Origin: a virus
Lineage: Duplodnaviria > Heunggongvirae > Uroviricota > Caudoviricetes
IMG/VR virus record: IMGVR_UViG_3300011008_000020
DNA length: 64,000 nt
Reading direction: 5' to 3' (one strand)
Within the stretch, counting starts at the first letter, position 1; each line of letters begins with the position of its first letter. This document shows positions 14,303 through 62,264 of the stretch, piece by piece. Below the pieces are notes generated by a model. It saw nothing but the letters and a program-made list of their open reading frames with translations, did no database searches and was not told where the DNA came from. The translations under genes and the position numbers were made by a program.

Positions 14303-14332
14303 ACTATAGCACATGAAATAGCGGCGTGTCAA
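14303..14332 (-). promoter_or_regulatory. sigma-A-type promoter (TTGACA-18-TATAGT)
   Basis: -35 lies inside palindrome GGCGTGTCAACGCC; TGGTGTCATT motif at 14353-14362. Confidence 0.5.
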
Positions 14333-17957: not shown

Positions 17958-17963
17958 CCTGTA

Positions 17964-19776: not shown

Positions 19777-19804
19777 GGCGGTTCCTCCTTCGTGAATGTG
19801 GTCT

Positions 19805-20071
19805 TTACTTCTTGGCCTTGTCGATCAGCGTGAGAATCGCCGCCGCCACTATGTACATACCGAGCATGACCCATAAGGGCGTGAGCGTTACCAGCCACGG
19901 CCAGTTGATGACCTTGGTGTGCTTGAGGATTACAAGCACAATCTCGACGACTTCCATGAGAACCATTCCGCCGATGAACACCCGCACGTATCTACGCTCT
20001 CGGACGTCATTGGCGTACTCTCGCTTCTTCGCAAGGAGCGGGGCGGCTTCCCTGTCAAGGCTTCTCATATC
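19805..20071 (-). CDS. small membrane protein
   Basis: Two predicted TM segments (VLMEVVEIVLVIL; WVMLGMYIVAAAILTLI). Confidence 0.45.
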   Translation of the reverse strand, partial: DMRSLDREAAPLLAKKREYANDVRERRYVRVFIGGMVLMEVVEIVLVILKHTKVINWPWLVTLTPLWVMLGMYIVAAAILTLIDKAKK

Positions 20072-20630
20072 AAAACTTCTTCCCGTGCTTGTAGGGTCTG
20101 GTCTTGTTGTATTCCGCCTTCTCGTGCAGCACACTCTCCGGCGACACGCCATGCTCGCGCAGCCAGCCGAAGATCATGTCGGTGGCGTTGGAGAAGCACC
20201 AGCCCACGTCGTAGACGCCGCGCACGTCGCCGTTGTCGATGTCCACGCCGACGTCGGTGGAATCCCCAAGGGCGAGGCCGAACACGCTGGAAATGACGGC
20301 GTGCAGCTTGCAGACCAAGATCGGCAGCGGCTCCTCCGGCGTCGCGTACACGGGCCGCTCGGACTTGGCGATGTAGGGGATGTCGTAGCGGCCCATGAAG
20401 TCGAACATCCGAATCACACAGTCGATCAGTTCGACGGCGACGCCTTCCATCTTTTCCGGCTTCTCCGGGTTGGAGTACATCATGGGCGTGCCCTTCCGCG
20501 CTTCCTCAAGCGCTTCGGACAGTTCCGAGTGAATCAGGGCAATCGTCTCGCGGGATTCACGCCCATCATCCCACCAGCCATGCGCGAGGGCGGTCTGGTG
20601 GACGTCATTGATCACGTCAACGAAATTCAT
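20070..20630 (-). CDS. MazG-like nucleotide pyrophosphohydrolase
   Basis: IALIHSELSEALEEARKG is an EExxE MazG motif; RBS GGAGGAAAAAC. Confidence 0.7.
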   Translation of the reverse strand: MNFVDVINDVHQTALAHGWWDDGRESRETIALIHSELSEALEEARKGTPMMYSNPEKPEKMEGVAVELIDCVIRMFDFMGRYDIPYIAKSERPVYATPEEPLPILVCKLHAVISSVFGLALGDSTDVGVDIDNGDVRGVYDVGWCFSNATDMIFGWLREHGVSPESVLHEKAEYNKTRPYKHGKKF

Positions 20631-20703: not shown

Positions 20704-21874
20704 ATTACTCCGGCAATTAAACATTGCCGCCGTGGTCATTAGAATCATCAAGTACTCGATAGGGTGCGAGAGTCGGGTGACCAAAGTATGATTGGACGTG
20801 CTTCGGGTTTTGTGACAGTGATGTCATAAAAGCATTGGCGTTCTGCTGGAGATCGGCCTCTGTCTTGGCTTGCCGTTGGGATCCAATCGTCTGTTTCAGG
20901 TCATTGTTCAGGTATTCGTCTGGATTGTACTCCGGAGAATAGGAAGGGAGGAAAAACAGCCGGATTCGATCCTTGTGTTCCTCTATCCAATCCTCTACAA
21001 GTTTCCCGTGGTGGACCTTGAGGTTGTCCAGAATGATGTAGACTTTACGAGGAATATCCTTGAGCAGCCGCTCCAGAAACTCGATCAACTTCTGCTGATT
21101 CATGCTTTCTTGACTGAACATGAAGTGCAGTTTTCCCTGATTGCTGATGGCGCTGATCATGTTGATGTGCATCTTCCTGGCTTTCGTCTTCAGCACCGGG
21201 GTACGGCCTTTCGGCGCATAGCCTCTGGCATAGTTGGCCACATTCTGTACGGCGGTCTCATCGCCCCAGAAAATCTCTGCATCTTCCTTCTTTGCCTCGC
21301 TGTGGATGGCTGGATACTCTTCCTTCAACCATCGCTGTACCGCTTCCGGCTTTTGCTCAATCGCCTGCTTCGCAGGCCGTTGCACTGTAAATCCCCACCG
21401 CTGGAGATACATCCCCACTGTGCGAATGGGCATATCAATCCCGTACTTGTCCTTGATCAGCTGGCGAACAGCATCCCGCGTCCACAGCGCACACTTCATC
21501 TTCAGTTGATCAGGATTCTTGTCGGTGATGATCCGAACAACTTCCTTCTCCTGATTTGGTGTCAGTGTACGTTTCTCGCCGGCTTTTCTGCCGCGCTTCT
21601 TTGGCTTTAGTGCTGCCATGCCTCCACTCTTGTACTTCCTGATCGTTTCCCGGACCGTTCTCTCGCTGAAGTCAGTTACTTCTATAATCTCCTCCACTGA
21701 CTTCTGTTTCTTGAAGAGTGCGATAACGGTTTTCCGCATCTGATACAGAACTTCCGGCGTGGATTTCCGATAATCAGTTTTCTCTTCGATTCCCATGGTA
21801 TTATTATACCATGTCTGAACCTAACTTGCTATATCCTGTCGGCAATATTTTGTTGCTGAGTTAATAAAGTAAAG
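20704..21874 (-). mobile_element. IS630-family insertion sequence
   Basis: Imperfect terminal inverted repeats (20706-20743 vs 21836-21872; CTCCGGCAATTAAACATTGCCGCCGTGG vs rc CTCAGCAACAAAATATTGCCGACAGGA) flank a transposase ORF; about 1.17 kb. Confidence 0.7.
20717..21796 (-). CDS. IS630-family (Tc1/mariner-like DDE) transposase
   Basis: 359 aa; N-terminal HTH; DDE_3-like core (...ILDNLKVHHG...FLPSYSPEYNPDE). Confidence 0.85.
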   Translation of the reverse strand: MGIEEKTDYRKSTPEVLYQMRKTVIALFKKQKSVEEIIEVTDFSERTVRETIRKYKSGGMAALKPKKRGRKAGEKRTLTPNQEKEVVRIITDKNPDQLKMKCALWTRDAVRQLIKDKYGIDMPIRTVGMYLQRWGFTVQRPAKQAIEQKPEAVQRWLKEEYPAIHSEAKKEDAEIFWGDETAVQNVANYARGYAPKGRTPVLKTKARKMHINMISAISNQGKLHFMFSQESMNQQKLIEFLERLLKDIPRKVYIILDNLKVHHGKLVEDWIEEHKDRIRLFFLPSYSPEYNPDEYLNNDLKQTIGSQRQAKTEADLQQNANAFMTSLSQNPKHVQSYFGHPTLAPYRVLDDSNDHGGNV

Positions 21875-21935
21875 GCGAAATTCTTGCAGAAAGGCACAAC
21901 TTGGATATGTTTCTATTGGTGTCCTTCCGTGGAAT

Positions 21936-21964
21936 ATTATAGCTTCTTTTAGTGGTATTGTCAA
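21936..21964 (-). promoter_or_regulatory. consensus sigma-A promoter TTGACA-17-TATAAT (family member 1)
   Basis: Minus strand reads TTGACAATACCACTAAAAGAAGCTATAATATTCCAC; shares flanks with four other copies. Confidence 0.65.
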
Positions 21965-22239
21965 GCGGAAGATGGCTCTATTGGTGGCTTTTTTACGGAT
22001 TTGTCAAGGTTTCCAGCCTCGAAGGAGGCGCGGAACCTTGGCAACCTGAGTTGCCATCCGGTTGCCGAAGCATAAAAACATACGGAAAGTTGTGGAAAAT
22101 ACGGAAAATTGCGCCTTTGCCAGAGTGGCCGCGCCGGTGTGCTGGTGGTGCCGGAATCCCCTGAAATCGCTGTGCAATATGCGCATAGAACGTGTAGATT
22201 ATAGAGCAATAAGCATAAAAGCAAGGGCAAATACAGGGT

Positions 22240-22277
22240 AAATACAGGAAACGGGCCGAGAATTGCTTCTCGGCCCG
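22240..22277 (-). terminator. rho-independent terminator following tRNA 3' fragment
   Basis: 10-bp stem GGGCCGAGAA/TTCTCGGCCC followed by GTTTCCTGTATTT. Confidence 0.6.
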
Positions 22278-22279
22278 TG

Positions 22280-22320
22280 TGGTCTGGGTGAGAGGATTCG
22301 AACCTCCGGCCTCTTGAACC
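22280..22320 (-). other. tRNA 3'-end fragment (T-arm plus acceptor plus CCA); att-site-like remnant
   Basis: GGAGGTTCGAATCCTCTCACCCAGACCA on the minus strand; no complementary 5' acceptor strand within 100 nt. Confidence 0.55.
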
Positions 22321-22575
22321 CCATTCAACATTTTCCAACTGCATTTTATACGCTTTTCATCGCATATCCCGCGTTATCAGCGGTATAAACCGGCGAAACT
22401 GCGTATATTCATGCGGCTTCAAAAACGTGTGGTTGCCAAGAAGTTGCCAAGCCCATACCCGACCCTGAACTCCGGCGAAAACAGCATCGCTTTAGCGCTC
22501 CATGCGCTATGTTTCCAATGGTGTCGGCACAACATCGTCTATGCATTGGTATTATACCGCCTGCTGAACGTGTTG

Positions 22576-36701: not shown

Positions 36702-37715
36702 TCAAAACTGGAATGTGATCTGCCCCTCGATACTGGCCTTCGGCTTCTTCGCGGCCTTCCGGGGCGTTCTCTGAATGGTGTCATTCTTAACTGGTTGTTT
36801 TGACACTGTTGGTGTCGCTTCGGGCAAAAGGAAAGAAGCCTGTGCCAGTTCAGCGATTCCCGGCTCGATCTTCGGTGTCTCCGGCTCCGGGGTCTGTGCT
36901 GCTGCGGGTTCTTCCTTCGCAGGCTTGGTGTCGCCGAAAACGTTCATTATGTAGCGGAACCGCTGCCGGGCGATCTCGATTTCCCGGCGCTCATGCCACG
37001 TCTGCTCGAAGAACATCGGCGTGTACCAGCATCGCTCGGAGTTCTCGCCGAAAAGTACGTGGCCGGTCATGGGGGTGTAGAGTGAATCGCCGATCACGAC
37101 GTAGCCCGCGCAGCCGAGAAGGGATAGCTGGATGTAGCACATCAGGGCGGTGGTGCTGTCGATCTCCTGCGCGGCGAACATGATCTGGTATGGATAGTTG
37201 ATGCCATACTCGACGCTCGCCTCCGCCGCAGCGATCAGGGTCGCGCCCGCGCCGCAGGCACAGTCCATGCAAGAGAACCACCCATTCCGGTCGATTGCCG
37301 CCTGCAACTTGTCCTTGTCGCTGTCGATGGTAATCCGTGCCATCATCTGGCAGATGTTGTATGGCGTGAAGAACTGGCCTCCGAGGTTGTTTCCAAGGTC
37401 GAGATTCATAAACATGTCGCCGAGGAAATCCCCGAAAGAGCCACGCTCAGTCTTATCGACCACGTTCTGGTGAATGATTGCGAGCAACGCGGAGAATTTC
37501 TCGATCTCTGCCGTGTCGTATTTCTCCACGATGGACATGTAGGTTTTCTCCCTGCTCTCGCGGAAGCGGTCATCCACGCAGTTCGAGATGGCGATGGCGA
37601 TGCACCAGACCATATCCTTCCAGACTTCCCAGATGTTGTACTTCCCGGTGAGGGAGTTTATGATCTTGATGAAATCGCGCTGAAACTCGTCCTTGCCGGT
37701 ATATGTCCGGGCCAT
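36702..37715 (-). CDS. HsdM/N6-MTase-like protein lacking recognizable NPP(F/Y) catalytic motif
   Basis: Motif X GQFFTP and motif I MDCACGAGATL are present. The motif IV position reads GDSLYTPM. Low-complexity P/E/K-rich C-terminus. Confidence 0.55.
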   Translation of the reverse strand: MARTYTGKDEFQRDFIKIINSLTGKYNIWEVWKDMVWCIAIAISNCVDDRFRESREKTYMSIVEKYDTAEIEKFSALLAIIHQNVVDKTERGSFGDFLGDMFMNLDLGNNLGGQFFTPYNICQMMARITIDSDKDKLQAAIDRNGWFSCMDCACGAGATLIAAAEASVEYGINYPYQIMFAAQEIDSTTALMCYIQLSLLGCAGYVVIGDSLYTPMTGHVLFGENSERCWYTPMFFEQTWHERREIEIARQRFRYIMNVFGDTKPAKEEPAAAQTPEPETPKIEPGIAELAQASFLLPEATPTVSKQPVKNDTIQRTPRKAAKKPKASIEGQITFQF

Positions 37716-37772: not shown

Positions 37773-38372
37773 TTACTTGGAGATTCGCGGGGTTACAACG
37801 GCGGAGAAAACGTAGTGGTAGTTGCCCTCGCGGTGATGGTTGTACTTGTATGGCTTGTGGAAGATTTCGATGCTGCCCCAGAGGACGCCGTTGGCGTCGC
37901 ACCACGAGGAAACATAGTCGCTCGCCAGTCGCGCCCGCATGAACTCGTCGGAGCGGTCAAGAGCCTCGGCCATCGCGTGCTCGGCGGCGTCGCCATCGTA
38001 GTCGGCGTGCATCACGCAGAAGCGATAGATGGTCGCTGCCTGCGGCTCGATGTGCGTGAAGCCCGTCTTTCCGGCTTCCTTGGCGGCGTGGGTATCTGCC
38101 ACCATCTGCTGGACTTCGGCCTCGGTGGGTTCGGTGTCGGCCTCGTCGGCCTTAATCCAGATGTTCACCGTGTCGCCGTTGCTCAGATTCAGCTCCAAGC
38201 GGTCGCCCAGATCGCAGATGTAGTCGTACCAGTGGCCGTCAGCGGTGCTGCTGTACACCGGGTAGCCAGCGCGGGAGCTGCGGTCGCCGTCCCGCTCATA
38301 GTCGGTGGGGAAGATTTCGTTGGCCTTGTTCCAAGCCTCCGAGATGCTCCTGACGGTGAAGTGCTTCGTCAT
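37773..38372 (-). CDS. hypothetical protein
   Basis: 199 aa ORF; first gene downstream of promoter 38423-38451. Confidence 0.5.
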   Translation of the reverse strand: MTKHFTVRSISEAWNKANEIFPTDYERDGDRSSRAGYPVYSSTADGHWYDYICDLGDRLELNLSNGDTVNIWIKADEADTEPTEAEVQQMVADTHAAKEAGKTGFTHIEPQAATIYRFCVMHADYDGDAAEHAMAEALDRSDEFMRARLASDYVSSWCDANGVLWGSIEIFHKPYKYNHHREGNYHYVFSAVVTPRISK

Positions 38373-38422
38373 GGTGAAGTTCCTCCTTTGTGAGTGTTTC
38401 CAGTGGTTGCTTTCTGTGGAAT

Positions 38423-38451
38423 ATTATAGCCGCTAATGGTGTCATTGTCAA
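38423..38451 (-). promoter_or_regulatory. consensus sigma-A promoter TTGACA-17-TATAAT (family member 2)
   Basis: Minus strand reads TTGACAATGACACCATTAGCGGCTATAATATTCCAC. Confidence 0.7.
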
Positions 38452-38529
38452 GAGGGAAAATGCCTCTTTTGGAAACTATTTTCGGAATTTCCCGCTTCTT
38501 ATGGTGGTTTTTTCTTGTTGACACTCCTC

Positions 38530-38558
38530 GGCGTGCCTGATATAATGGTGTCAATCCG
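38530..38558 (+). promoter_or_regulatory. plus-strand sigma-A promoter TTGACA-17-TATAAT
   Basis: TTGACACTCCTCGGCGTGCCTGATATAAT followed by GGTGTCAAT. Confidence 0.6.
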
Positions 38559-38565
38559 ATTTGCA

Positions 38566-38645
38566 AGGTCGGAGGGAGTGCGCTTGCGCACGGAAGCGGC
38601 CCACATGGCGTTGTGGGCCGCTTCTCTTTCAGATGTTCCTATTCA
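38566..38645 (+). ncRNA. candidate small RNA (promoter to terminator, about 75 nt)
   Basis: Between plus-strand promoter 38530-38558 and terminator hairpin GAAGCGGCCCAC/GTGGGCCGCTTC with TCTCTTTC tail. Also internal hairpin GTGCGCTTGCGCAC. No ORF. Confidence 0.4.
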
Positions 38646-45497: not shown

Positions 45498-46273
45498 GGA
45501 AAATCCTGTCGGAAGTCATCGCCCATGAGTTCCCTGATGCTGTCCTTCATAAAAATCGGCCTGCCGGAGTATTCGCACTCCATGAGGATTGCGTCAATCC
45601 ACTCCTTCTTCGGCTGCACCTTGTTCTTGCGGCCTCCCGTCTCTGCACCGACGATCACCCAGTCGGCAGGGACGTGGGAGCAGAAGCCCGGCTGCATCGG
45701 CGCGAGCATCGGCTCGATGGACACGAACAGGTTCTTGACGAGACACTCGTCCGCGTGGTGGAAGCGCCAGAGCATCTTCTGGCTGGTGGCCGTGTAGCCG
45801 TACCAATGTTCATGCGGCAGCAGGCCTTTCGCTGCCAGCTCGTTGTAGCGGTTCGGGTTCTTGGTGAGGAACAGGTATCTGTGCTGCTTCGCCTTCGCAC
45901 AGGCGTCGAACACTTCCTGAATCCACTCGTCGGGCACCCACTCGCCAAAGACGTCCGACATCGAGCCGACGAATATGGTCTTCGGGTTCTTCCATTTCTG
46001 CGGGATGTCCAGACGGTAGCGGTGGAAGGTCGGCGCAAAGCCGAAGGGGTAGGGCGTCGGCACGATCTGGCCGTTCTTCTGCTCTCGGCACTGAATCTCT
46101 TCCAGCACATACAGACCGTTTTCCTCGTGCCACGTGCCCGGCTTATGATCGGGAAGGAATCCCTTAAACCTGCGGGCCATGCCGCGAGCATAGCAGTAGG
46201 CGCAGCCGTGGTTACAGCCGGTGATCGGGTTGAATGAGGCGTCGGCCCAGTCGATCTTGGTGGTCTGTCCCAT
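45479..46273 (-). CDS. phage Gp37/Gp68 (DUF5131) family protein with CX3CX2C radical-SAM-type motif
   Basis: WADASFNPITGCNHGCAYCYA. Confidence 0.65.
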   Translation of the reverse strand: MGQTTKIDWADASFNPITGCNHGCAYCYARGMARRFKGFLPDHKPGTWHEENGLYVLEEIQCREQKNGQIVPTPYPFGFAPTFHRYRLDIPQKWKNPKTIFVGSMSDVFGEWVPDEWIQEVFDACAKAKQHRYLFLTKNPNRYNELAAKGLLPHEHWYGYTATSQKMLWRFHHADECLVKNLFVSIEPMLAPMQPGFCSHVPADWVIVGAETGGRKNKVQPKKEWIDAILMECEYSGRPIFMKDSIRELMGDDFRQDFPWEVKA

Positions 46274-46832
46274 TATGCCTGCTCCTTTCTGATCGCGTTC
46301 TCCGGCGTCAGGCCGTCCAACTGCATCCGGCTCCCTGTCGCTTCCTCTTGCCCACAGTATTTCCCCGTGTAGGGCTTGGAGACGTCAACGGCGTCCATGT
46401 AGACGAGCTGGGTCACGGGGTAGCCGGGATAGAGGAGGATTGTGCAAGGGCTGTCGTTCTTGAGTTCCAGTGTGATGTGGCCGGGGAATCCGGGGTCAAC
46501 GAAGCCCGCGTTCTGCACCGTCAGACCGGCCCGACCAATGGAGGAGCGCCCCTGAACGAAAGCCGCCGCGTCAATCGGCACGATGATGGATTCAATGGTC
46601 GTCGCCAGCATGAACTCGCCGGGCATGATCGGGATGGTCTCGCCGTCCTTGACCTCAAAGCGGGTGTATTTCATTTCCTCGCCGAGCCGGACGATCTGGC
46701 TGGGAACCGGCTTGAGGAAGGTGTGGCCCAGCCGGAGGTTGATGCTGGCCGGATTGACGCTGCTGTCATTCGTCCCGGAGATCATACCGTTCTCAATGAG
46801 ACGCTTCAAACGCTTATCTCCCCAAATCATTT
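46273..46832 (-). CDS. dcd: dCTP deaminase (Dcd/dUTPase fold)
   Basis: MIWGDKRLKRLIENGMI...NPASINLRLGH...GRSSIGRAGL...ITLELKN parallels Dcd. Confidence 0.75.
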
Positions 46833-47083
46833 CTTTTCCCCTCTTTCTCGGCGTCAGCGATGCCCTCCTTGATGCCATCGCTGACCATTTTCCCACACAT
46901 GGATAATGGCCCACGCTGACATGCAACCTTGAGGATTCGCCGCTCATAGTGCCGGTTGTCTTCGCCCTTCTCACGCTGCACGCCGTATAGCTTGCCGATG
47001 GTGTTCAGCGTCATGCCGTGCATCGCGGACTTGAGCGTGTTGTAGGTGTGTCTCCGCGCAAGGCGCGTGATTATATCTGCCAT
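46814..47083 (-). CDS. hypothetical protein
   Basis: 89 aa ORF. Confidence 0.45.
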   Translation of the reverse strand: MADIITRLARRHTYNTLKSAMHGMTLNTIGKLYGVQREKGEDNRHYERRILKVACQRGPLSMCGKMVSDGIKEGIADAEKEGKRNDLGR

Positions 47084-47095: not shown

Positions 47096-48070
47096 CTAAA
47101 CTGTCGTGGTTCCCAGAAGCCTGTGATTCCTGTGCCGGTCTCTGCTGATGTCGAGGCAGAAGCCGTCGCTGCGCTCGGCAATCCTGCTGCCGGTGGCCTC
47201 GTCCATGTCCGAGAGATCGGCGATGTGCCACTCGCTGGATATGATCGTCGGCAGCTTGTTGACGTATCGGTAGTTGATCAGGTCGAAGGCCAGCTTCTTG
47301 TCCGGGCCTGACGGCTGTGTGACCTCGCCGTGCTCGTTGGTGACCGGCTTTAACATGTCGTCTATGTAGAGCACATCGACCGTCTGCAGGCGGCTCATTT
47401 CCTTCTCGTAGTTCTCCGCGTCGTTCACGATGGCCTTGAGCCGCTTGCTGATCTGCGGCCACACCACATAGAGCAGCGGACGCTCGTAGAGCAGCCGCCC
47501 GGCGACAGCGGTGCAGATGTGGGTCTTCCCGCATCCCGGCTGACCGCCCATGTAGAGCCACCGGCCAGCCTTGACGCCTTCCGAGAGGTATCGGTTCGCC
47601 ATGTCAAGCATCGCCTTCTGCCACGGCTCAGTCGCCTCAAAGCGTTTGAACGTGTTTTCCTTGATGCTCTTTTCGAGGCCGGACTGGCGAAGCCGCCAGA
47701 TGCTCTTGCGAATTTCCATGCACCTGCACGGGGTGACATACTCGTAGATGCCGCCGTTGCTGTCAACCTTGAACCCCATCGTGTTGCCGCGATTCAAACA
47801 CAGCTTGCAATCGTAGCCGTCACCGGCGATGGGAGTGTTCTTGCCTTGGGCGGTGTCGGCGGTGTAGCCGTCCTTCAAGTTGCCCGGCGTGTTGTTGTAG
47901 TTATCGACCTTGCGCTGCTCACACTCGATGTCGTACTGCTTGCGTTCTTCCGGCGACATCGCCATAACAGCTTTCATTTGGGCGAGCACCTGCCGCCCAC
48001 GATCAGACAATGGTTTGTCCTTCAAACAGCTTTCGAGGCCCTGAATCGCCAGCTCTCCCAGCGTTGGCAT
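47096..48070 (-). CDS. DnaC/IstB-like helicase loader ATPase
   Basis: Walker A GGQPGCGKTH; Walker B VLYIDDM. Confidence 0.75.
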   Translation of the reverse strand: MPTLGELAIQGLESCLKDKPLSDRGRQVLAQMKAVMAMSPEERKQYDIECEQRKVDNYNNTPGNLKDGYTADTAQGKNTPIAGDGYDCKLCLNRGNTMGFKVDSNGGIYEYVTPCRCMEIRKSIWRLRQSGLEKSIKENTFKRFEATEPWQKAMLDMANRYLSEGVKAGRWLYMGGQPGCGKTHICTAVAGRLLYERPLLYVVWPQISKRLKAIVNDAENYEKEMSRLQTVDVLYIDDMLKPVTNEHGEVTQPSGPDKKLAFDLINYRYVNKLPTIISSEWHIADLSDMDEATGSRIAERSDGFCLDISRDRHRNHRLLGTTTV

Positions 48071-48953
48071 TTCGGCGTCCCCCTTTCTTTCTCGCGTGTT
48101 CATCTGATGCAGCCTTGAACTCGGCGACAGAGAGCACGTTTTCCTCGACGCAGCGGTTCAGGATTGACTTCACGTAGTTGTAGACGCGCTTCCCGTTGCC
48201 GCAGGCTTCGTCTATCACATGGATTATCAGGTCATCAGGGAGACCGTCGTCCCTGAATGTGAGTAGTTCTGCTTCGTTGTTGGGTGTCATACACATAAGG
48301 TTTTCCCTTGCGTATACGATCAATCTATCTACGAACACAGGATTATCTTCTCCGTCATCTTCACCATAAGGGTTTGACGGAATGTTATAATAAACACCAG
48401 CAGGAGTAGGCGTAGCCTTTCCTTTACTTTCCTTTGTGGCATTTGCGGGCCGCATTTCGTCATTTGCGGCCTGCAAATGCGAATTTGATGGCGGCACGTA
48501 GGGATATGTGGATGATGTGACCGCGCTCAACGGCACGAGATTGATGGAACCCGTTTCTTCCGGGCGCAGAAGCCAGTATTCACGAATGGCACTCCGAACG
48601 CGGCGCTTTGCGATAGCGATGGCGTACCTTTTTTGCATACCTCTACTTGTAAGGACACCCTGTGCGAAAAGCCTTTTATCAAAAAGTCCACAACGCAAGC
48701 ATGCCTCAACGGTCGCCTTGACCGTGCCAGATCGTATGCCAGCGCCCATCCGCCTCGCTATGGCGGCGTCACTGTCATCGCTCCAAATGTAGAAGTAGCC
48801 CTCGTCTCCGTATGCCTTCTGGCAGATGTAGAAGTAAATCGAGAACCCAAGCCACCCTTGCGCATCGAGCAGCTTGTCCATTTTTCGGTCATTGTCGAAC
48901 ATGGTAACATCCCAGCCCGCGTAGTCTATGCCTTGTTTCGGCCTGCCGGACAA
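48003..48953 (-). CDS. phage replisome organizer (DnaD-like / Phage_rep_org_N)
   Basis: GWLGFSIYFYICQKAYGDEGYFYIW N-terminal domain; upstream of the DnaC-like gene. Confidence 0.65.
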   Translation of the reverse strand: MSGRPKQGIDYAGWDVTMFDNDRKMDKLLDAQGWLGFSIYFYICQKAYGDEGYFYIWSDDSDAAIARRMGAGIRSGTVKATVEACLRCGLFDKRLFAQGVLTSRGMQKRYAIAIAKRRVRSAIREYWLLRPEETGSINLVPLSAVTSSTYPYVPPSNSHLQAANDEMRPANATKESKGKATPTPAGVYYNIPSNPYGEDDGEDNPVFVDRLIVYARENLMCMTPNNEAELLTFRDDGLPDDLIIHVIDEACGNGKRVYNYVKSILNRCVEENVLSVAEFKAASDEHARKKGGRRNANAGRAGDSGPRKLFEGQTIV

Positions 48954-49040
48954 ATGGATTCACCCTCTTTCACCCCCACGCCCGTCGCCGGGCGCAGGGG
49001 AGTGTTCGTCTATGACACCGTTAGATGCCGTTTGTGGAAT

Positions 49041-49069
49041 ATTATAGCCGCTAACGGTGTCATTGTCAA
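49041..49069 (-). promoter_or_regulatory. consensus sigma-A promoter TTGACA-17-TATAAT (family member 3)
   Basis: Minus strand reads TTGACAATGACACCGTTAGCGGCTATAATATTCCAC. Confidence 0.7.
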
Positions 49070-49101
49070 TATGGTTAATGCAACTGATAGAAACTTTTTT
49101 G

Positions 49102-52100
49102 TTATTCCATCACGGCGTGACTTCCGGCGTCGTCCTTCGTCACGGTGATGTTCTGGGGGAACATGGCCTTCATCGCCTCGTCGTGGGTGATTGCCATGAT
49201 GCACATATCGGTGTAGCGCCGCCGGATGGCTTCAAGGGCCTCGACGTAGGCCCGCACGCCGTCACTGTCAAGGAATGGCGGCTCGTCAAGGAACAGGAAG
49301 CCGAGCTGCACGCCGAGCTTGTTCTTCATCACCTCTGCAAGGGCAAGGATGACGCTCAATGCCGCCTTGACGCGCTCGCCGCCAGAGCGGGACAGGTAGG
49401 GCAAGCGCCCGGTGTCCGCGTCGTTGATGACGACGTCCAGCGTGGTGACCTCCTTCTTGTTGTTGCTCTTGAGCACCTTCTCTGTCACCAGCTCCACGCT
49501 CATGCGGCCCTGCGACATCTGGCCGAGGATATTGGAGGCCGTGGCCTCGAAGATCGGGATGATCGACCTCGTGATGTTGTGCGGAATGCCGTTGGAACCG
49601 AAGGCTTGCTTGAGTATCTCGTACTGCGCCGCCGTATAGGCTTTGTCGTCGATCTGCTTGGCGACTTCGGCCACGTGAGCCTGCAAGACTTTCGTTCGCT
49701 CGATCTCCGCCTCGATGGAGGCCTTGACGCCGACCACGCGGTCTCGCTCGGCCTGTTCGCTGGCGATCTGCTTCTTGATCTCGATGATCTTGGCCGTGAT
49801 AGCGTCCTTCTCGGCGTCCGTCGCGGCTTCACCGGCGAGATTGGCTTCGAGTTCGCTGATGTGCTTCTCGTTGAACTCAATCGCCCGCTGGTACTCGTCA
49901 ATGCGTTCCTGCGCGGCGTCCCTGCGGTCTTTCGCGCCAACAAGCTGCTGTTCCTTCTCGATGCACGGCTTGTACTGCGTGATCGCGTTGACGGCGGCGG
50001 TGTATGCTTCATAGACTTCGGCATAACCGGCGATGTCGGCGTTCACCTTTTCCAGCTCGCTTTTCTTGGTCTCGATCTCGTAGGTGAGGGTGTTGTCGCG
50101 CTCTGTGACTTCCTTGCGACTGGCTTCGAGCCGGGTCAGTTCTTCTTCGTAGGTGGTGATCTGTGCAAGCATCACGGACGCAGAAGCCAGTTCCTTGAGC
50201 CGGGCACGCATCTGGGCGATGGCGGCGGCATCCACGGTGTTGATGGCGTCTCGCCGGGCGATGGCCGCATTCACGTCGTCCGTCAGCTTCGCAAACTCGA
50301 CGCGAGCCGCTTCGGTGGCTTCCGCGTGCTTCTTTTCCAGCTCCGGCAGGGCGTCACGTGCCGCCACGGCGTCCGCGAGGAAGCGGCAGGTGGCGGTCGC
50401 GGCAATCGGGCAACCGCTGTCATCCAGCATGGCGACGCGCTTCTTCTTGCTTTCGATCTCGGTCATGCGCTCACGGAAGTCTGCCCGCGCACTGTTTCGC
50501 AAATCGGAGACCTTGGCTTGGAGTTCGAGGACGGCGCTGTTTGCTGCGTTCCACTTGGCCCTGTTCTCCTCGTCTGCCTCAAGTGCCGCCGTGATGCTGT
50601 CGTGCTCCCGCTGCTGGCGCTCGTACTCTGCGCGGCGAGCGATGGACGCACGAAGCTGTTCCATCCGGGTGTCAAGCTCCTGCGCCCTCTTGGAGTTCTG
50701 GGCGCGGCTGTCCTCACCGGTGCGGATTGCGTTTTCGATGCTGGCACGCTGGGTCTGCATGACGGTGAGGGTGTTCACCTTGTCCTGCAAGGCGTCCCGC
50801 TCAGCCTGCGCCTTGCGGCAGCGTTCCGCGCCGTCAAGGATGTTGCTCTGGTCGTCGAGGATGGAGGCATAGAGCGCCTTGTCCATCTCGGCGCTGAGTT
50901 TCTGCGCCTGCGCACGCCCAATAGCTTCGCGCATTTCGCCGATCTGGCGGCGATACATCGCATAGACCTCCGAGGACGTGTTCAGCTTTGCAAGCTCCCC
51001 GTTCAGGTGTTCGAGTTCGGCGTTCAGGAGTTTGAGTTCGGTGTCACACCCGTCAATGCCAATGACGCAACCGGCGCGGCGATTGCCGAGGACATCGAGG
51101 TCTCCGCACTGCTGCGAGAGTTCATCCTTCTTGGCCTGCAGCGTCCGCACCTCCCGGTTGGCCTCCGTGGCCTTTTCGACGGCCTCGTCGGCCATCTGGT
51201 CGTAGATACCAAGACCGAGGATGTCGGAAAGAATCTGCATGCGCTCCTCTTTGCCCGCTTGCAGGAAAAGCCCATACTGGTCTTGCATGATCAGTGCGCA
51301 GGCGCGAAGGGTCTGGCCGTCGATGCCGATCACGCGCACGATGGCATCCTGCGTGTCGCGCATCTTCTCGCACGAGCGGTCAACCCACTCGCCGTCAACC
51401 TTCTCGGACAGGTTCAAGGTCGCTTTGCCGCTCTTGACGCGGGTGCGTACCACGCGCCACAGCTTGTCGCCGACGCGGAAGGTGAAGTGAATCGCGCCGG
51501 AGCGTGCGCTCTCGTCGTTGCAAATCCAGCCGGTCAGGTCGCCCTCTCGCGGTTCCTCGTAGAGCGCGTCGAAGATCGCGTCCATGAACAGGCTGCTCTT
51601 GCCGACGCCGTTCTGGCCGTTGATGGTCGCAAAGCGCACATCATCGAAGGAGAATGTTTCGTCGCGGTAGTTGCGGTAGTTGGTGACGCTGATCTCGACC
51701 GGCACGAGGACGCCGCTCGCCTTGTCGGCGTGGCCTTCCGCGAGCACGCGGTCAATGATGGAGCGGCCCTTCTCAAGGACGTTTGCCACGGTCTCGTCGT
51801 CGATGACGGTGGCGTTGGTGGCGAGGTACTCCCGCAGGTTCTCCACGGGGTCGTTCTCGGCGGTCAGCTCGGTGCGGTTCACCGTCACCGTGATGTTGCG
51901 CGGGGTGATCTCCTGCACCCAGAACGCTCCCATGTCCATGATCGCCCGTTCGAGCTGCGGACGGTTGAGGGCCTTCTGGTTCTCGTCGGTGCAATCGTAG
52001 ATGACGCGGACGATGGCGTCCTTCACGTCCTGCTGCGGCAGGATGCCGGTCAGGTTGAAGTCGTGGATGCCGTCGTCATCCATGCGGATGGTCTTGAACT

Positions 52101-52953
52101 TGCGCGGGCTGTCAAGCTCCACAAAGTGGTGGTTGCTTACACTCCACCCTTTGTTCCAATCGCCATCCAGCGTATGGACATAGAAGCCGCGCTCCTGTCC
52201 CTCGTCGTTGAAGTTGAGCCGGTTGATCGCGCCGCTGTAGAAGGCCCTCTCGCCGAGGGGCTGCGGCCTGTGGATGTGGCCGAAGCAGCACAGGTCATAG
52301 TTTGCCGTCATCAGCGTCTTGTGGGAAATGATCGGCTCGAACTGGCTGAACATCATGGTCTGGCCGCTCTCGGTGTTCGCACCCTCGACGGTGTAGTGCC
52401 CGACCAGCACAGAAGGATTGCCACGCTGGCACTGGGCCCTCATGCCGACGATCATCTGCTCAAGCGCTTCGGTGAACGCCTGCGTCTCCTGCTCACGGTC
52501 TGCGCCGGGGTTCTGGCTGCGCCAGTAGCCCTTGTCGAAGCCGGGCAAGGCGCAGAGGCTGACGGCGGTGACGTTGGTGTCGATGGAGTAGTGGCCCGGC
52601 TCGGTGATGATCTTGACGTTGCCATTGTTCTCGAAATGGGTCTTGAGCATCTGGTAGTGCTGCTCGCCGTCGTGGTTGGGTGTGCCGCGCACGATCACGA
52701 CCGGCGCGATGTCGGCGAGGCGCTCGATGCGCTGGATGGCGTCGTTGACCTCGGAGATTCCGCGCTCGCTCCACGTCTTGGCGGCGTGGAACAGGTCACC
52801 GGCGTGGATGATCAGATCGGGATTGATCGTCGCCACCTTGTCGATGAACTCGTCGAAGCAGCGCAAGGTGTCCTCGGCGCGGGCGTTCTTCCCGGCCACC
52901 ACCGGCCCCGGAAAGGGGCCGATGTGGGTGTCAGCAAAATGAACGATCTTCAT
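49102..52953 (-). CDS. fused Mre11/SbcD-like phosphoesterase plus Rad50/SbcC-like SMC ATPase (1283 aa)
   Basis: N-terminal MKIVHFADTHIG...DLIIHAGDLFH (calcineurin-like). Walker A GQNGVGKSS, long coiled coil, signature LSRSGGE, Walker B LFLDEPP. Confidence 0.75.
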   Translation of the reverse strand: MKIVHFADTHIGPFPGPVVAGKNARAEDTLRCFDEFIDKVATINPDLIIHAGDLFHAAKTWSERGISEVNDAIQRIERLADIAPVVIVRGTPNHDGEQHYQMLKTHFENNGNVKIITEPGHYSIDTNVTAVSLCALPGFDKGYWRSQNPGADREQETQAFTEALEQMIVGMRAQCQRGNPSVLVGHYTVEGANTESGQTMMFSQFEPIISHKTLMTANYDLCCFGHIHRPQPLGERAFYSGAINRLNFNDEGQERGFYVHTLDGDWNKGWSVSNHHFVELDSPRKFKTIRMDDDGIHDFNLTGILPQQDVKDAIVRVIYDCTDENQKALNRPQLERAIMDMGAFWVQEITPRNITVTVNRTELTAENDPVENLREYLATNATVIDDETVANVLEKGRSIIDRVLAEGHADKASGVLVPVEISVTNYRNYRDETFSFDDVRFATINGQNGVGKSSLFMDAIFDALYEEPREGDLTGWICNDESARSGAIHFTFRVGDKLWRVVRTRVKSGKATLNLSEKVDGEWVDRSCEKMRDTQDAIVRVIGIDGQTLRACALIMQDQYGLFLQAGKEERMQILSDILGLGIYDQMADEAVEKATEANREVRTLQAKKDELSQQCGDLDVLGNRRAGCVIGIDGCDTELKLLNAELEHLNGELAKLNTSSEVYAMYRRQIGEMREAIGRAQAQKLSAEMDKALYASILDDQSNILDGAERCRKAQAERDALQDKVNTLTVMQTQRASIENAIRTGEDSRAQNSKRAQELDTRMEQLRASIARRAEYERQQREHDSITAALEADEENRAKWNAANSAVLELQAKVSDLRNSARADFRERMTEIESKKKRVAMLDDSGCPIAATATCRFLADAVAARDALPELEKKHAEATEAARVEFAKLTDDVNAAIARRDAINTVDAAAIAQMRARLKELASASVMLAQITTYEEELTRLEASRKEVTERDNTLTYEIETKKSELEKVNADIAGYAEVYEAYTAAVNAITQYKPCIEKEQQLVGAKDRRDAAQERIDEYQRAIEFNEKHISELEANLAGEAATDAEKDAITAKIIEIKKQIASEQAERDRVVGVKASIEAEIERTKVLQAHVAEVAKQIDDKAYTAAQYEILKQAFGSNGIPHNITRSIIPIFEATASNILGQMSQGRMSVELVTEKVLKSNNKKEVTTLDVVINDADTGRLPYLSRSGGERVKAALSVILALAEVMKNKLGVQLGFLFLDEPPFLDSDGVRAYVEALEAIRRRYTDMCIMAITHDEAMKAMFPQNITVTKDDAGSHAVME

Positions 52954-52974: not shown

Positions 52975-53946
52975 TTACTGCTGGTTCCTTGCCTTCTTCT
53001 GGCAGTTGAAGCACAAGGGCTTGCCGAACTTGTCGATGCTGTAGTTGTAGACCTTCTCGCTGATCTCTGCGCCGCATACGTCACAGCACGGGCCGCTCTG
53101 CTGGGAGGGTTCAGGGTCATTCAGGAAATCGGGCATACCGTCCTGATAGTCGTCCTTCGGGGGTTCGCCCGCGTCGCTGATGTTGGAGGGAATCATCGGC
53201 GCTTCGTCATCGTCGTCGCCGCTCACGTCGATCACGCGGGCCTGACTGATGTTCGCGGCGTCGTGGCCGTAGAGCGCCTGCGCACCGGCGAAGAATCCGT
53301 CGATGGCGCGTGCCTTGACTTCCGGGTTGTTGAGGTTCGGCACCAAGTACGCGACGATGAAGGGCTTCTTGAGTTCTTCCAGCGTATAGGTGGGCTTGAT
53401 CATCAGCGCCGCACGGATGGCGCGGTTGAGTGCCTTGCTCTCGCAGTGCTCGGCGCGGTACTTCATAAACTGCGCCTTCTGCTGCGCCGTCATGTCAGCC
53501 GTCTCCTCGTCGATGTTCATTTCGCGGCTGGCCTTGTACATGATGTCCTGCCCGGTGAGCTGCGGGGCGAGGATGGTGACGGTGTACTTGACGTCCTTGT
53601 TGGAGCAGGAGCCGCAGTTGACCGGGCGACCAATGGAGCGGTTGACCTCCGCGCACTTGAGGCACTTGGACGGCAGCTCGGATTCAGACTTCACGATGCG
53701 GATTCCCGCCGCCCGCATCAGCTTCAAGAGGCCCTTGCGGGTCAGGGCGTAGCCGGTGCCCTGCTTGTAGATTTCGCCATCCTTGAAGTCCGTGGAGATC
53801 GTGACGGCGTTCATCACCGGCGACTGAATCTCTGCGATCTCGGCCACCGTCTGAATCGGCACGAGGACGTTGAACTTCTCGGCGGGGTACTGCGAGGAAA
53901 GCGCCAGCGCATTGTTGGTGGTGGCGGGCAGGTTGTTGTTTGCCAT
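52975..53946 (-). CDS. putative recombination / ssDNA-annealing protein with zinc ribbons
   Basis: 323 aa adjacent to SbcDC-like gene; CLKCAE...CGSC and CCDVCG...CFNCQ. Confidence 0.4.
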   Translation of the reverse strand: MANNNLPATTNNALALSSQYPAEKFNVLVPIQTVAEIAEIQSPVMNAVTISTDFKDGEIYKQGTGYALTRKGLLKLMRAAGIRIVKSESELPSKCLKCAEVNRSIGRPVNCGSCSNKDVKYTVTILAPQLTGQDIMYKASREMNIDEETADMTAQQKAQFMKYRAEHCESKALNRAIRAALMIKPTYTLEELKKPFIVAYLVPNLNNPEVKARAIDGFFAGAQALYGHDAANISQARVIDVSGDDDDEAPMIPSNISDAGEPPKDDYQDGMPDFLNDPEPSQQSGPCCDVCGAEISEKVYNYSIDKFGKPLCFNCQKKARNQQ

Positions 53947-53949
53947 TTT

Positions 53950-54345
53950 TTACACCTCCATATATTGCATGGTCGAGGGAACTGTGCTATAATGGAGATA
54001 GTCGGAGAACGAGTTCCCACCGTTATCCTTCTGGCCTGTCCGAGCTGCAATCTCGGTCAGGCCCATTTTTATCCCCAGTTCATCCATGACTTCGTACATG
54101 CGCTTTGCCTCAAGGGCCTCGCTTTGCAGCCGGGCGTTGTAGGCGTGGAGCGCGTCGAGCCTGTTCTGGTTTACCTGTTCGGCGACGACCGTCGTGAGGT
54201 AGGCCGCGTCAAACTCTCGGTGAAACAGCTCACTTTGGAAGTTCAGCTTTATGGTCGCGTATTCCAGTGCCGCATCATACTCAGCGTCGGTGATCGGGCG
54301 ACCATAGTGTGCTTCAACGAGCCGCTTGTTCGTTGTCGGTAGCAT
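53950..54345 (-). CDS. hypothetical protein
   Basis: RBS GAGGAGG then MLPTTNKRLVEAH. Confidence 0.5.
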   Translation of the reverse strand: MLPTTNKRLVEAHYGRPITDAEYDAALEYATIKLNFQSELFHREFDAAYLTTVVAEQVNQNRLDALHAYNARLQSEALEAKRMYEVMDELGIKMGLTEIAARTGQKDNGGNSFSDYLHYSTVPSTMQYMEV

Positions 54346-54568
54346 GGTTTTCCTCCTCGATCTCAAAGAACGAGATTTGATGTCCTGCCGCTTTGCGCGG
54401 TCTGAACGACTTGAGCATCTTTTCTTCAAGGTTCGCCAGCGGCGTCGGAAGTCCAGCGCCGAACAGCCTGCGGTAGCAGACCGGGCCGTAGCCGACCAAA
54501 ATGGCCTCCGCGTTCTTGAGCTTGCGGTGGCATTTCCTACACCGGGCGGGCTGGCCTTGCATTTTCAT
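54314..54568 (-). CDS. small zinc-ribbon protein
   Basis: RBS AAAGGAGG then MKMQGQPARCRKCHRKLKN...GYGPVC. Confidence 0.5.
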   Translation of the reverse strand: MKMQGQPARCRKCHRKLKNAEAILVGYGPVCYRRLFGAGLPTPLANLEEKMLKSFRPRKAAGHQISFFEIEEENHATDNEQAAR

Positions 54569-54605
54569 CCTCCTTTCTGTTTCTAATGGTGTCGTCCCGT
54601 GGAAT

Positions 54606-54634
54606 ATTATAGGCGCTGTTAGAAACTTTGTCAA
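54606..54634 (-). promoter_or_regulatory. consensus sigma-A promoter TTGACA-17-TATAAT (family member 4)
   Basis: Minus strand reads TTGACAAAGTTTCTAACAGCGCCTATAATATTCCAC. Confidence 0.65.
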
Positions 54635-54658
54635 GCCCTTTTTTGTCTCTGATCGTGT

Positions 54659-54982
54659 TTATTTTACTGCCGGGGCGCGACGCTGGCCGCGCTGGACAGA
54701 ACCAGACCGGGCGACGCGGGAAACGGAGCGCCCATACTGATGAAACTGGGTCTCAAATTCGGGGTTCAGGAAAACCAGATCATCCGGGTTCGGATTGTCG
54801 CCGCGTTCCCTTGCCTCGGCGAAGCGCTCCATGTTGACGCTCTGGATTCGGCGCTGCAGGTCACGAACGGTGTCCGCATAGTACATGCGCTCCTCCGCGA
54901 CGGCGCGGTACTTGTCCCAGATCACGAGGCGGTCGATGCCGATACCAGCGATCAGCGCGAGAATGATATACAGGGTAATCAT
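54659..54982 (-). CDS. membrane-anchored hypothetical protein
   Basis: RBS AAGGAGG then MITLYIILALIAGIGI. Confidence 0.5.
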   Translation of the reverse strand: MITLYIILALIAGIGIDRLVIWDKYRAVAEERMYYADTVRDLQRRIQSVNMERFAEARERGDNPNPDDLVFLNPEFETQFHQYGRSVSRVARSGSVQRGQRRAPAVK

Positions 54983-58769: not shown

Positions 58770-58810
58770 TACCAAATGTAGACTTTATTTTGCTTTTTGA
58801 GGTGTTGTGC

Positions 58811-60182: not shown

Positions 60183-60440
60183 TCAGCGTTCGGCCAGCGT
60201 TTTCCTGCCGAACTCCCGGATGTAGGGGTTGCCGGGCACTCTCGGCTCCTCGGTGCTTTCAAAGAGGCTGTCCTCCGTTTCGTGCAGCGCCATCTTGATC
60301 GCCAGCACGATTCGGTAGGACGGGTTCTTGGCGCCGCACTCGATTTGCGAGTAGTAGCTGCGAGACACTCCCAGTGTGAGCGCGATGTCGCTCTGCGTCA
60401 AACCGGCGCGGCGTCGCGCATCCCTCAATTTGGTTCTCAT
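60183..60440 (-). CDS. XRE-family HTH regulator
   Basis: RBS GGGAGGTGATACA then MRTKLRDARRRAGLTQSDIALTLGVSRSYYSQIECGAKNPS. Confidence 0.65.
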   Translation of the reverse strand: MRTKLRDARRRAGLTQSDIALTLGVSRSYYSQIECGAKNPSYRIVLAIKMALHETEDSLFESTEEPRVPGNPYIREFGRKTLAER

Positions 60441-60480
60441 TGTATCACCTCCCGCTTCATATAGAAGCATTTTTTAGACT

Positions 60481-60510
60481 ATTATAGACGCAGATGGTGT
60501 CATCTGTCAA
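60481..60510 (-). promoter_or_regulatory. consensus sigma-A promoter TTGACA-18-TATAAT (family member 5) with palindromic operator
   Basis: Minus strand reads TTGACAGATGACACCATCTGCGTCTATAAT; palindrome CAGATGGTGTCATCTG at 60491-60506. Confidence 0.65.
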
Positions 60511-60529: not shown

Positions 60530-60955
60530 ATGTCAATTTTCGGTGAGAGGCTGTATGAGGCCCGCAGGCGGCAGCGGATTACTCAAGGCGATCTGGCAGA
60601 TCGCGCAGGCGTCACCCGGTCGGCCATCGGTGGGTATGAGAAGATGGGAAAGGATGCCAGCTATGAAGTATTGGTGAAGATCGCGCAGGCACTCGGCGTG
60701 ACGACTGACTACCTGCTCGGCATGGACGACAATGCTGGCTGGCATAAGCGCACCGGCGTCGCCGAGAAGTTCTACGATCTTGAGCTTTACTATGACCGTG
60801 CGCCAGACGAGCAGAAAGCCACCATAGACAGCCTGCTCGTGGAGGTGGACAAGTTGCTCGCCTTCTTCCTCGCGTCGCCGGACACGGCGCGGCTGGGCCA
60901 TCTGCGTGACCTCCTCGCGGACGCCCGCAGGCTCATGGGTGATGGCAATGAGTGA
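60530..60955 (+). CDS. XRE-family HTH regulator with C-terminal domain
   Basis: RBS GGAAGGAG then MSIFGERLYEARRRQRITQGDLADRAGVTRSAIGGYE. Confidence 0.65.
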   Translation: MSIFGERLYEARRRQRITQGDLADRAGVTRSAIGGYEKMGKDASYEVLVKIAQALGVTTDYLLGMDDNAGWHKRTGVAEKFYDLELYYDRAPDEQKATIDSLLVEVDKLLAFFLASPDTARLGHLRDLLADARRLMGDGNE

Positions 60956-62169: not shown

Positions 62170-62202
62170 TGTAAAAATCCACTATTGGTGTCAATTTTCA
62201 TC

Positions 62203-62231
62203 TTGACAATGTTGCCATTAGTTGCTATAAT
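62203..62231 (+). promoter_or_regulatory. consensus sigma-A promoter TTGACA-17-TATAAT (plus-strand family member)
   Basis: CTTGACAATGTTGCCATTAGTTGCTATAATGG; TGGTGTCAAT motif at 62187-62196. Confidence 0.65.
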
Positions 62232-62264
62232 GGATTTGAAAATGACGCGAAGGGAGACAATCAC

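Follow-up and report, generated by a model that had tools for sequence, protein, structure and literature searches.

A 15-bp candidate operator locked to three registers of perfect-consensus promoters in a metagenome-derived temperate phage

Control of scattered promoters by one repressor with dispersed operators is a long-established principle. In phage P1 a single immunity repressor, C1, acts through many dispersed operators that overlap the promoters of separate early operons, and phiC31 is a further case of one repressor with an operator at many promoters. Here we describe a 15-bp element that recurs at perfect-consensus promoters along 64,000 nt of tailed-phage DNA (IMG/VR record IMGVR_UViG_3300011008_000020; this whole stretch is called the window), and that is probably the operator of a repressor encoded in the immunity region. 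Its sites are pseudo-palindromic 15-mers, in contrast to the asymmetric 17-mers of P1, and its candidate binders are unrelated to C1. These findings leave the current understanding of phage regulation unchanged; the case is set apart by how strictly the sites keep to three registers inside perfect promoters, and by the way in which related phages have exchanged all their operators together while the scaffold stayed constant. In SPbeta, the master repressor MrpR (YopR) has a 15-bp element, SPBRE, at about ten promoter regions, predicted in silico and then confirmed by chromatin affinity precipitation sequencing (ChAP-seq) and electrophoretic mobility shift assay (PMC10516654). The likeness lies in one 15-bp motif repeated at many promoters across a prophage. 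MrpR, however, has a tyrosine-recombinase-like fold, whereas the candidate binders in the window are small XRE helix-turn-helix (HTH) proteins that are not MrpR-homologous, and the window sites stand at three fixed registers within perfect-consensus promoters. Cluster A mycobacteriophages (L5, Bxb1) carry more than 20 repressor sites over the genome, and their immunity evolves by coupled change of repressor and site (PMC9283540, PMC6550527). Their stoperators are asymmetric 13-mers, bound by a monomer and oriented with transcription, and act on elongation in intergenic gaps. The window does not hold a stoperator system, because its sites are dyad-like, point in both directions and keep to promoters, with intragenic matches at chance level.

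The immunity region itself recalls the lambdoid phages (lambda, 434, P22), in that divergent repressor and Cro-like genes surround an operator-bearing gap, the repressor HTH is like those of P22 C2 and 434, and immunity types are likewise defined by a matched helix and operator. In contrast to the lambdoid repressors, the CI-like protein of the window has no LexA-type S24 domain, and its operators are spaced 33 bp apart rather than ~24 bp; they also occur at five or more further promoters, whereas lambda repressor acts on two early promoters only (PL and PR). In the CI-MOR systems of TP901-1 and phi13 the lytic promoter is overlapped by one of three palindromic operators, the phi13 half-site being AGTTCAYR (PMC8516035). 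Shared with them are a CI whose HTH is N-terminal and whose C-terminal domain is helical, and a small divergent HTH partner, whereas the operator layout and the genome-wide copies differ; no TP901-1 CI chain was present among the PDB sequence matches of the CI-like protein, and no specific similarity to that protein was detected among solved structures. Low-GC relatives (L080-L094) carry AGTTCAC...GTGAACT half-sites that flank the -10 upstream of the cro-like gene, and these are like the AGTTCAYR of phi13/TP901-1 CI (PMC8516035). The closest solved HTH domain by sequence is that of ICEBs1 ImmR (7t8i, E 6e-7), whose gene likewise lies beside int; the window repressor gene differs in having no adjoining ImmA-type protease gene.

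The window is a tailed temperate prophage with a long (48-kb) early/middle region read on the minus strand. It holds eight promoters with perfect sigma-70/sigma-A consensus hexamers (TTGACA/TATAAT, 17 ± 1 nt), seven of the form TTGACA-N17-TATAAT and one TTGACA-N18-TATAAT, against none in 100 dinucleotide-preserving shuffles. All fall within the early/middle region (12.5-62.3 kb), with none in the 1-12 kb structural block. An earlier note on this DNA had described a family of at least six, namely P21936 (21936..21964, -), P38423 (38423..38451, -), P49041 (49041..49069, -), P54606 (54606..54634, -), P60481 (60481..60510, -) and P62203 (62203..62231, +). All six are real and lie where the note had placed them, with both hexamers perfect and spacers of 17 nt in five and 18 nt in P60481; to these we add two further perfect promoters, P22551 (22551-22579, -) and P38518 (38518-38546, +), and three with one mismatch (14303, 15667 and 58741). 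The common sequence is less uniform than had been proposed: a C 5' of TTGACA and an ATTCCAC directly 3' of the -10 are each found in four of the six, the latter being missing from 60481 and 62203, and the motif that had been ascribed to every spacer is present, as GACACC, in those of 38423, 49041 (ATGACACCGT) and 60481. The spacer of 62203 has a diverged ATGTTGCCAT (GTTGCCATTAG) in its place, and those of 21936 (ATACCACTAA) and 54606 (AAGTTTCTAA) lack the motif; in these two promoters GACACCA(A/T)TAGAAAC stands instead in the leader, at ~+7 to +21, ~12 nt downstream of the -10, and at 22551 it is found further downstream. Most scaffold promoters start right after the stop codon of the preceding gene, without a terminator. 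We take them to be strong in-line promoters, each needing its own silencing in a lysogen and hence its own operators, because they appear constitutively strong and mostly lack an upstream terminator.

When the promoter regions were aligned, a 15-bp element of the skeleton G-NNN-C-YANTR-G-NNN-C emerged as three separate blocks. In the window and in the relatives L001, L011 and L012 these pseudo-palindromes are centred at -53 (±1), -20 and +14, in either orientation (the -10 hexamer being set as -12 to -7, i.e. the start site assumed 7 nt after it), with a step of 33 bp, about three helical turns, from one register to the next. The -53 site lies between A-rich tracts, which are perhaps UP-element-like. 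This three-register layout, which the earlier note did not contain, is followed by all six of its promoters. Occlusion had been proposed for the -35 and spacer alone, which is too narrow, since sites occupy all three registers and two promoters (21936 and 54606) rely mainly on the +14 site.

Several counts show that the element is enriched and position-locked. TGACACCA occurs seven times in the window against 1.76 expected, and its previously reported recurrence near other promoters holds (14353, 38546 and 62186). With at most one mismatch, GACACCATTAG occurs eight times against 0.53 expected, always within ~70 bp of a perfect promoter, and GACACCATTAG-NNNC is the commonest form of the 15-mer in the window. 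We then used an independent, palindromic site model, built from ten spacer 15-mers of relatives only (consensus GACGCTAATAGCGTC) and scanned on the window; all bit scores given for sites derive from it. Thirteen matches reached at least 10 bits, nine of which are operator copies at perfect promoters: eight lie exactly at -53, -20 or +14 and one at +27 of P22551, with register positions occupying ~0.15% of the window. The other four are intragenic (39171, 36802 and 37884 at 12 bits or above, and 6787 at 10.7 bits). At the six promoters, a score of 4.4 bits or more is reached at 13 of the 18 register positions, whereas random 15-mers average -20.7 bits (sd 8.2) and 0.1% of them reach 5 bits. Altogether at least 15 sites at eight to nine promoters are dispersed over 48 kb, an enrichment over shuffles. 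Nor is the motif at background frequency in related genomes, its density per 10 kb being 1.25 in the window, 0.17 in relatives with GCCCC-type operators, 0.06 in the family's other phages and 0 over 210 kb of contigs from unrelated genomes. A matrix refined iteratively on the window itself drifted to codon-like GAC/ACC/GGC patterns and was dropped in favour of the relatives-only model. GCCCC-N5-GGGGC sites are at chance level in the window (2 vs 3.1 expected, none at promoters), and a scan of viral sequences for TTGACA-NN-GACAC-N5-G-NNN-C-TATAAT returned, besides chance matches, only L011 and L012.

The top-scoring site of the window is the -20 copy of P38423 (GACACCATTAGCGGC, 38429..38443, -; 17.3 bits), which is accompanied by weak operator-like copies at -53 (GTTTCCAAAAGAGGC, 38462..38476, -; 6.2 bits) and +14 (GCAACCACTGGAAAC, 38396..38410, -; 0.6 bits). 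This promoter has a 17-nt spacer, is followed by ATTCCAC and drives 37773-38372 and an N6-methylase gene (36702-37715). P49041, which drives a replication module (DnaD-like, 48003-48953; AAA, 47096-48103; dCTP deaminase, 46273-46974), has its -20 site on the minus strand (GACACCGTTAGCGGC, 49047..49061; 14.0 bits), its +14 site inverted relative to this (GACACCGTTAGATGC on the plus strand, 49014..49028) and its -53 site also on the plus strand (GCAACTGATAGAAAC, 49080..49094; 8.8 bits). At P54606, which drives 54314-54562, 53950-54429, 52975-53946 and a Mre11/Rad50-like gene (49102-52953), all three copies read on the minus strand: +14 (GACACCATTAGAAAC, 54579..54593; 13.5 bits), -20 (GTTTCTAACAGCGCC, 54612..54626; 9.4 bits) and a weak operator-like -53 copy (AACACGATCAGAGAC, 54645..54659; 4.4 bits) whose orthologues in L001 and L012 are stronger. 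P21936 likewise has minus-strand copies at +14 (GACACCAATAGAAAC, 21909..21923; 13.5 bits) and -52 (GCCACCAATAGAGCC, 21974..21988; 9.4 bits), and a weak operator-like one at -20 (ACCACTAAAAGAAGC, 21942..21956; 6.0 bits). P62203, just past the int terminator (62141-62161), drives a DarA_C-domain gene (62265-62777) and carries plus-strand sites at -20 (GTTGCCATTAGTTGC, 62211..62225; 11.4 bits) and -53 (TCCACTATTGGTGTC, 62178..62192; 11.4 bits), with a weak operator-like +14 copy (GACGCGAAGGGAGAC, 62244..62258; 4.6 bits) that is kept in L108, L110, L111 and L129. P60481, in the divergent immunity region, serves the Cro-like gene; its 18-nt spacer holds a GACAC...GCGTC site at -20 (GACACCATCTGCGTC, 60487..60501, -; 10.7 bits), with the orthologues GACACCATTAGCGTC in L001 and GACGCTATTAGCGTC in L108. 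The remaining promoters are less regular. P22551 has no site in its spacer and a single strong one at +27 (GACACCATTGGAAAC, 22511-22525, -), an operator-like site overlaps the -10 of P38518 (GACACCATTAT..., 38538-38552), and another lies at ~-56, upstream of P14303 (GACACCAATCGCGCC, 14345-14359), a one-mismatch promoter (14303..14332, -; TATAGT) that is a peripheral member at best. A palindrome CAGATGGTGTCATCTG at 60491-60506 had also been pointed out and is indeed present between the divergent XRE genes, but the closest relative, L001, reads GACACCATTAG there. The palindrome is probably incidental, because it is broken in that relative; its 6-4-6 arrangement CAGATG-N4-CATCTG (CAGATG-GTGT-CATCTG in the window) was accordingly rejected as a functional unit.

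How the element changes among relatives provides a second line of evidence. About 80 related loci (numbered L) were gathered by a scaffold-pattern scan of viral contigs, protein-anchored scans (Cro-like and CI-like) and exact-protein look-ups, the look-up with CI returning only 3-4 kb contigs. In close relatives (L001, L011, L012, L108-L111, L129-L131) orthologous promoters keep sites at the same registers while the flanks drift, and a true dyad appears in some, e.g. GACGC-TATTA-GCGTC in L108 and L129. More distant phages hold TTGACA, the 17 nt, TATAAT and often ATTCCAC constant and have the 15-mer replaced. Helix 3 of the CI-like protein changes in step: GAC(A/G)C...GCG(G/T)C occurs with VTRSAIGGYE (window, L001, L108), GACGC...GCGKC with MSRSGIGGYE (L109, L110, L129), GCCAC-TAATA-GTGGC with VSRSAISGYE (L133), GCCCT/GCTCT...GGGGC with TARSNIQGYE or TPRQNVQGYE (L047, L049), and GCCCC-N5-GGGGC, present in L003, L050 and ~30 others, with (K/Q)(T/Q)R(S/T)TVSGYE at many loci. 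Further types are GTTCC-N5-GGAAC (L085 and L093) and GTCGC...GCGAC (L090). Within each phage one half-site recurs at several promoters, at spacer and +13/+14 positions, and does so at the orthologues of P60481, P54606 and P62203. Most loci found by the Cro-like protein also have a homologous CI-like gene divergent from the Cro-like gene. Spacer identity within versus across operator types was 0.64-0.65 versus 0.50, a modest discrimination because all perfect promoters were pooled. We conclude that the 15-mers at promoters probably form the operator regulon of an immunity-region repressor, because they are position-locked, enriched and exchanged together with immunity-region HTH proteins in relatives. 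The earlier proposal of a phage repressor regulon is thereby supported in outline, although three of its details were overstated: the confinement to -35 and spacer described above, the extension to every early operon, as P58741 and P15667 carry no operator-type site and P58741 has a palindrome of its own, and the attribution to one XRE protein, which is too specific, since a CI-like protein fits best and a Cro-like one is also a candidate.

Both of these proteins are encoded around P60481 and its operator, by divergent genes. The CI-like gene (141 aa, 60530..60955, +) is divergent from P60481, lies upstream of int and overlaps it; the Cro-like gene (85 aa, 60183..60440, -) is the first read from P60481. 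Both are XRE proteins that match Pfam HTH_3 (53.1 and 41 bits, respectively; cut-off 23). Sequence and fold searches liken the N-terminal domain of the CI-like protein to the DNA-binding domains of ImmR, P22 C2 and the 434 repressor. An S24 (LexA-like) autocleavage domain was not found in this protein, in which only HTH families matched, and no ImmA-type metalloprotease gene was called within 10 kb of the CI-like gene in the window, L097-L099 or L129-L134. Its C-terminal 65 residues are modelled as three helices; a fold search with the model matched the HTH domain only, leaving the C-terminal domain without a recognisable relative. That this domain mediates oligomerisation is an assumption, because its model is only moderately confident and lacks a fold match. 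In all, five HTH proteins are encoded by the immunity region. The HTH of a 158-aa protein is invariant between phages of different operator type, a 91-aa protein does not differ within the GACRC group and barely differs in L047, and a 115-aa protein varies inside one operator type, so these three do not track operator type. From this comparison the 141-aa CI-like protein is the most likely binder, possibly sharing the sites with the 85-aa Cro-like protein; it would be the better fit as the lysogenic repressor, with the Cro-like protein as a second candidate binder, either a lytic repressor or a modulator. A lambda-like sharing of operators by the two is plausible.

Further features of the immunity region were observed. 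A second divergent HTH pair, 58808-59158 (+) and 58352-58627 (-), flanks the near-consensus P58741 (58741-58769), whose spacer palindrome differs from phage to phage, apparently in step with the 115-aa HTH protein; a third HTH protein there (57862-58338), which has a Cys-rich region, hardly varies among relatives. Perhaps two nested switches are present in the immunity region. Between the two HTH pairs, and convergent with the Cro-like gene, lies a DUF5780 gene (59215-60174, +) that encodes a lipoprotein-like product and is kept in relatives at variable length; it may be a lysogen-expressed moron.

We propose the following mechanism. The six promoters share a scaffold of A-rich tract, TTGACA, 17/18-nt spacer, TATAAT, usually ATTCCAC, and up to three operators, and would be served by host RNA polymerase. 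The 15-mers would be bound in the lysogen by a dimeric HTH repressor that the divergent immunity region encodes, likely the 141-aa CI-like protein. At -20 the bound site would fill the spacer and block RNA polymerase, and at +14 it would block open-complex formation, promoter escape or early elongation. The 33-bp spacing on the same face would allow cooperative binding via the C-terminal helical domain. The 85-aa Cro-like protein made from P60481 may bind the same frame with other half-site preferences and turn early transcription down later, or alternatively it might modulate CI. A bolder extension, which we regard as possible but doubtful, concerns this family of large temperate phages, with uncultured Clostridia-like bacteria as hosts: each early promoter under repression might be a self-contained mini immunity region, in which a CI oligomer on three operators three turns apart wraps a perfect promoter; specificity might evolve by concerted replacement of ~15-18 operators per genome and two to four CI helix residues on a frozen scaffold, CI and Cro discriminating via the inner triplets of the G-NNN-C half-sites.

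A number of observations weigh against an operator regulon with the CI-like protein as its binder. The register numbers depend on the assumed start 7 nt past the -10. Some register sites are weak (38396-38410 at 0.6 bits, 54645-54659 and 62244-62258), and P22551 and P38518 carry one site each, at a non-canonical position; the intragenic matches at 39171, 36802 and 37884, three at 12 bits or above where shuffles give 1.6, are about what chance provides. At P60481 the +14 site (60454..60468) is a different, conserved palindrome, GCTTC-N5-GAAGC, which is kept with a variable centre in the window, L001, L108, L109 and L129. It overlaps the -35 of the only candidate CI promoter (TTCATA-18-TATTAT, 60456-60485, +), whose -10 overlaps that of P60481 on the other strand, and may be a second operator type or a weak plus-strand terminator. 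The C-terminal domain of the CI-like protein is modelled at moderate confidence (pLDDT, the predicted local distance difference test, of 75.8). Finally, the recognition helix of the Cro-like protein also differs between operator types (SRSYYSQ vs SRSHYSQ), and co-variation cannot name the binder, because the CI and Cro genes are adjacent and inherited together, so that shared descent confounds the comparison.

This last point leads to the alternative that the genome-wide binder is the 85-aa Cro-like protein (60183-60440), acting as a lytic-phase repressor that would switch off the early promoters after infection, with the CI-like protein working in the immunity region only or through Cro in a CI-MOR-like manner. 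In the 52 loci that the Cro-like protein retrieved, its helix 3 and the half-site are correlated (SRSHYSQ with GGGGC, SRSYYTH with GGAAC, SRSYYTE with GCGAC, LSFYKQ with GTGAAC); the window has the Y variant with GA(A/G)(A/G)C right halves (GAAAC, GAGAC, GAAGC), L056, also Y, has GAGGC, and no part of the architecture is better conserved than the operator pair, spacer and +14, that precedes the cro-like gene. Between the GACRC and GCCCC groups, however, one Cro helix residue differs, against three to four in the CI helix, and L109/L129 and L133 change operator while keeping SRSYYS-. Perfect promoters, moreover, need silencing in the lysogen, where a Cro-type protein is not made. We therefore consider the Cro-like protein unlikely as the genome-wide binder, though the two possibilities are not mutually exclusive.

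Repetition of the sequence might also have arisen with no operators at all, from a promoter cassette duplicated by common descent or gene conversion, or from tuning of promoter strength through UP element, spacer and initial transcribed sequence. P38423 and P49041 are indeed identical at 36 of 37 positions from -35 to +1, and the upstream A-tracts are UP-element-like. In 185,579 species genomes, TTGACA-N17-TATAATATTCCAC was found at 31 loci (L014-L044) against an estimated ~4 expected by chance, more than half of them from Clostridia-type metagenome-assembled genomes, one (L029) directly upstream of a tRNA gene and none with a GACAC site; neither the host nor a related prophage was among them, only unrelated promoters. 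Several of these loci then continue into GGAAT, giving ATTCC...GGAAT inverted repeats. Because TATAATATTCCAC stands at unrelated host promoters, part of the shared sequence is generic promoter context, and ATTCCAC in particular belongs to such strong-promoter context rather than to the operator. The 15-mer, in contrast, occurs in both orientations and at three registers, in transcribed and non-transcribed DNA. Relatives keep the hexamers and ATTCCAC and, within any one phage, swap the 15-mers of all promoters together; the model derived from other phages picks out the window sites in register, and promoter-strength elements are not expected to be palindromic. An explanation without operators is thus improbable. 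Still less credible is that the leader copies (GACACCAtTAGAAACA, +7 to +21) act as RNA, forming a shared 5' untranslated region element for processing or for an RNA-binding factor of phage or host. The leader copy is co-oriented with transcription in four promoters (21936, 22551, 38423 and 54606), and in two of these it lies just before the ribosome-binding site, but it is inverted in P49041 and its L012 orthologue, and the same 15-mer stands in non-transcribed spacers and upstream DNA. Its palindromic skeleton is typical of dimer-binding DNA, and it matched no Rfam family at gathering score. Operators of a repressor from the immunity region, most likely the CI-like protein, therefore remain the reading that we favour.

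The window is ~57% G+C, and nearly all of its real genes lie on the minus strand. Genes for small and large terminase, portal, head morphogenesis protein, protease and a virion structural protein occupy 1-12 kb. The set at 12.5-60.5 kb encodes DNA-metabolism and unknown proteins, including a ParB-methylase, HNH proteins, an N6 methylase, dCTP deaminase, DnaD-like and AAA proteins, a DUF4942 protein and a 1283-aa fusion (49102-52953, -) of a Mre11-like phosphoesterase to a Rad50/SbcC-like SMC ATPase, which is kept throughout the phage family. The Cro-like XRE (-), CI-like XRE (+), tyrosine integrase (+) and DarA_C-domain (+) genes follow at 60.2-62.8 kb. A megablast search of phage and plasmid collections with 37000-61999 gave no match, and hence no close annotated relative there. 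At the integrase end, ~850 bp past the DarA_C gene, lies a tRNA-His (63626-63707, +), the sole Rfam match at gathering score and the likely integration target; the sequence flanking it is common to L108, L111 and L049. In L129, L130 and L131 (~11700-20400; contigs of ~100 kb) plus-strand replication-type genes (DnaN, SSB) continue beyond int and DarA_C, so the integrase is not terminal in those elements.

Three promoters have unusual surroundings. Directly downstream of P21936 and its +14 operator lies an IS630-type transposase gene (20717-21796, -) with DDE_3 and HTH domains. It appears to have inserted behind a phage promoter; for this element no terminal inverted repeats were detected. The transcript of P22551 is non-coding as far as a terminator near 22250. 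It contains a fragment (22280-22327, -; region 22248-22327) like the T-arm and acceptor end of a tRNA or tmRNA, followed by a hairpin terminator, with an Rfam tmRNA score of 11.9 bits (E 0.017) that is far under the gathering score; being the sole feature transcribed from P22551, it suggests a phage non-coding RNA or an att-like remnant. P38518 points against the gene flow, and the first ~75 nt of the region that it opens (38518-38640, +) fold into three hairpins (-44.8 kcal/mol, z -4.3), the last of them terminator-like, so the region could be a small RNA or a bidirectional terminator region; the structure is not conserved at the end of L011. Permissive Rfam scans around P22551 and P38518 gave nothing convincing.

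If confirmed, the sites described here would provide a ready map of the lysogeny regulon, with its promoters, operators and candidate repressor, in a phage lineage known from metagenomes only. The relatives would offer a natural series of matched repressor and operator specificities on one scaffold (GACRC, GCCAC, GCCCC, GTTCC) in which to follow the evolution of immunity groups, and the promoters may be a source of orthogonal repressible strong promoters for Gram-positive or Clostridia genetics.

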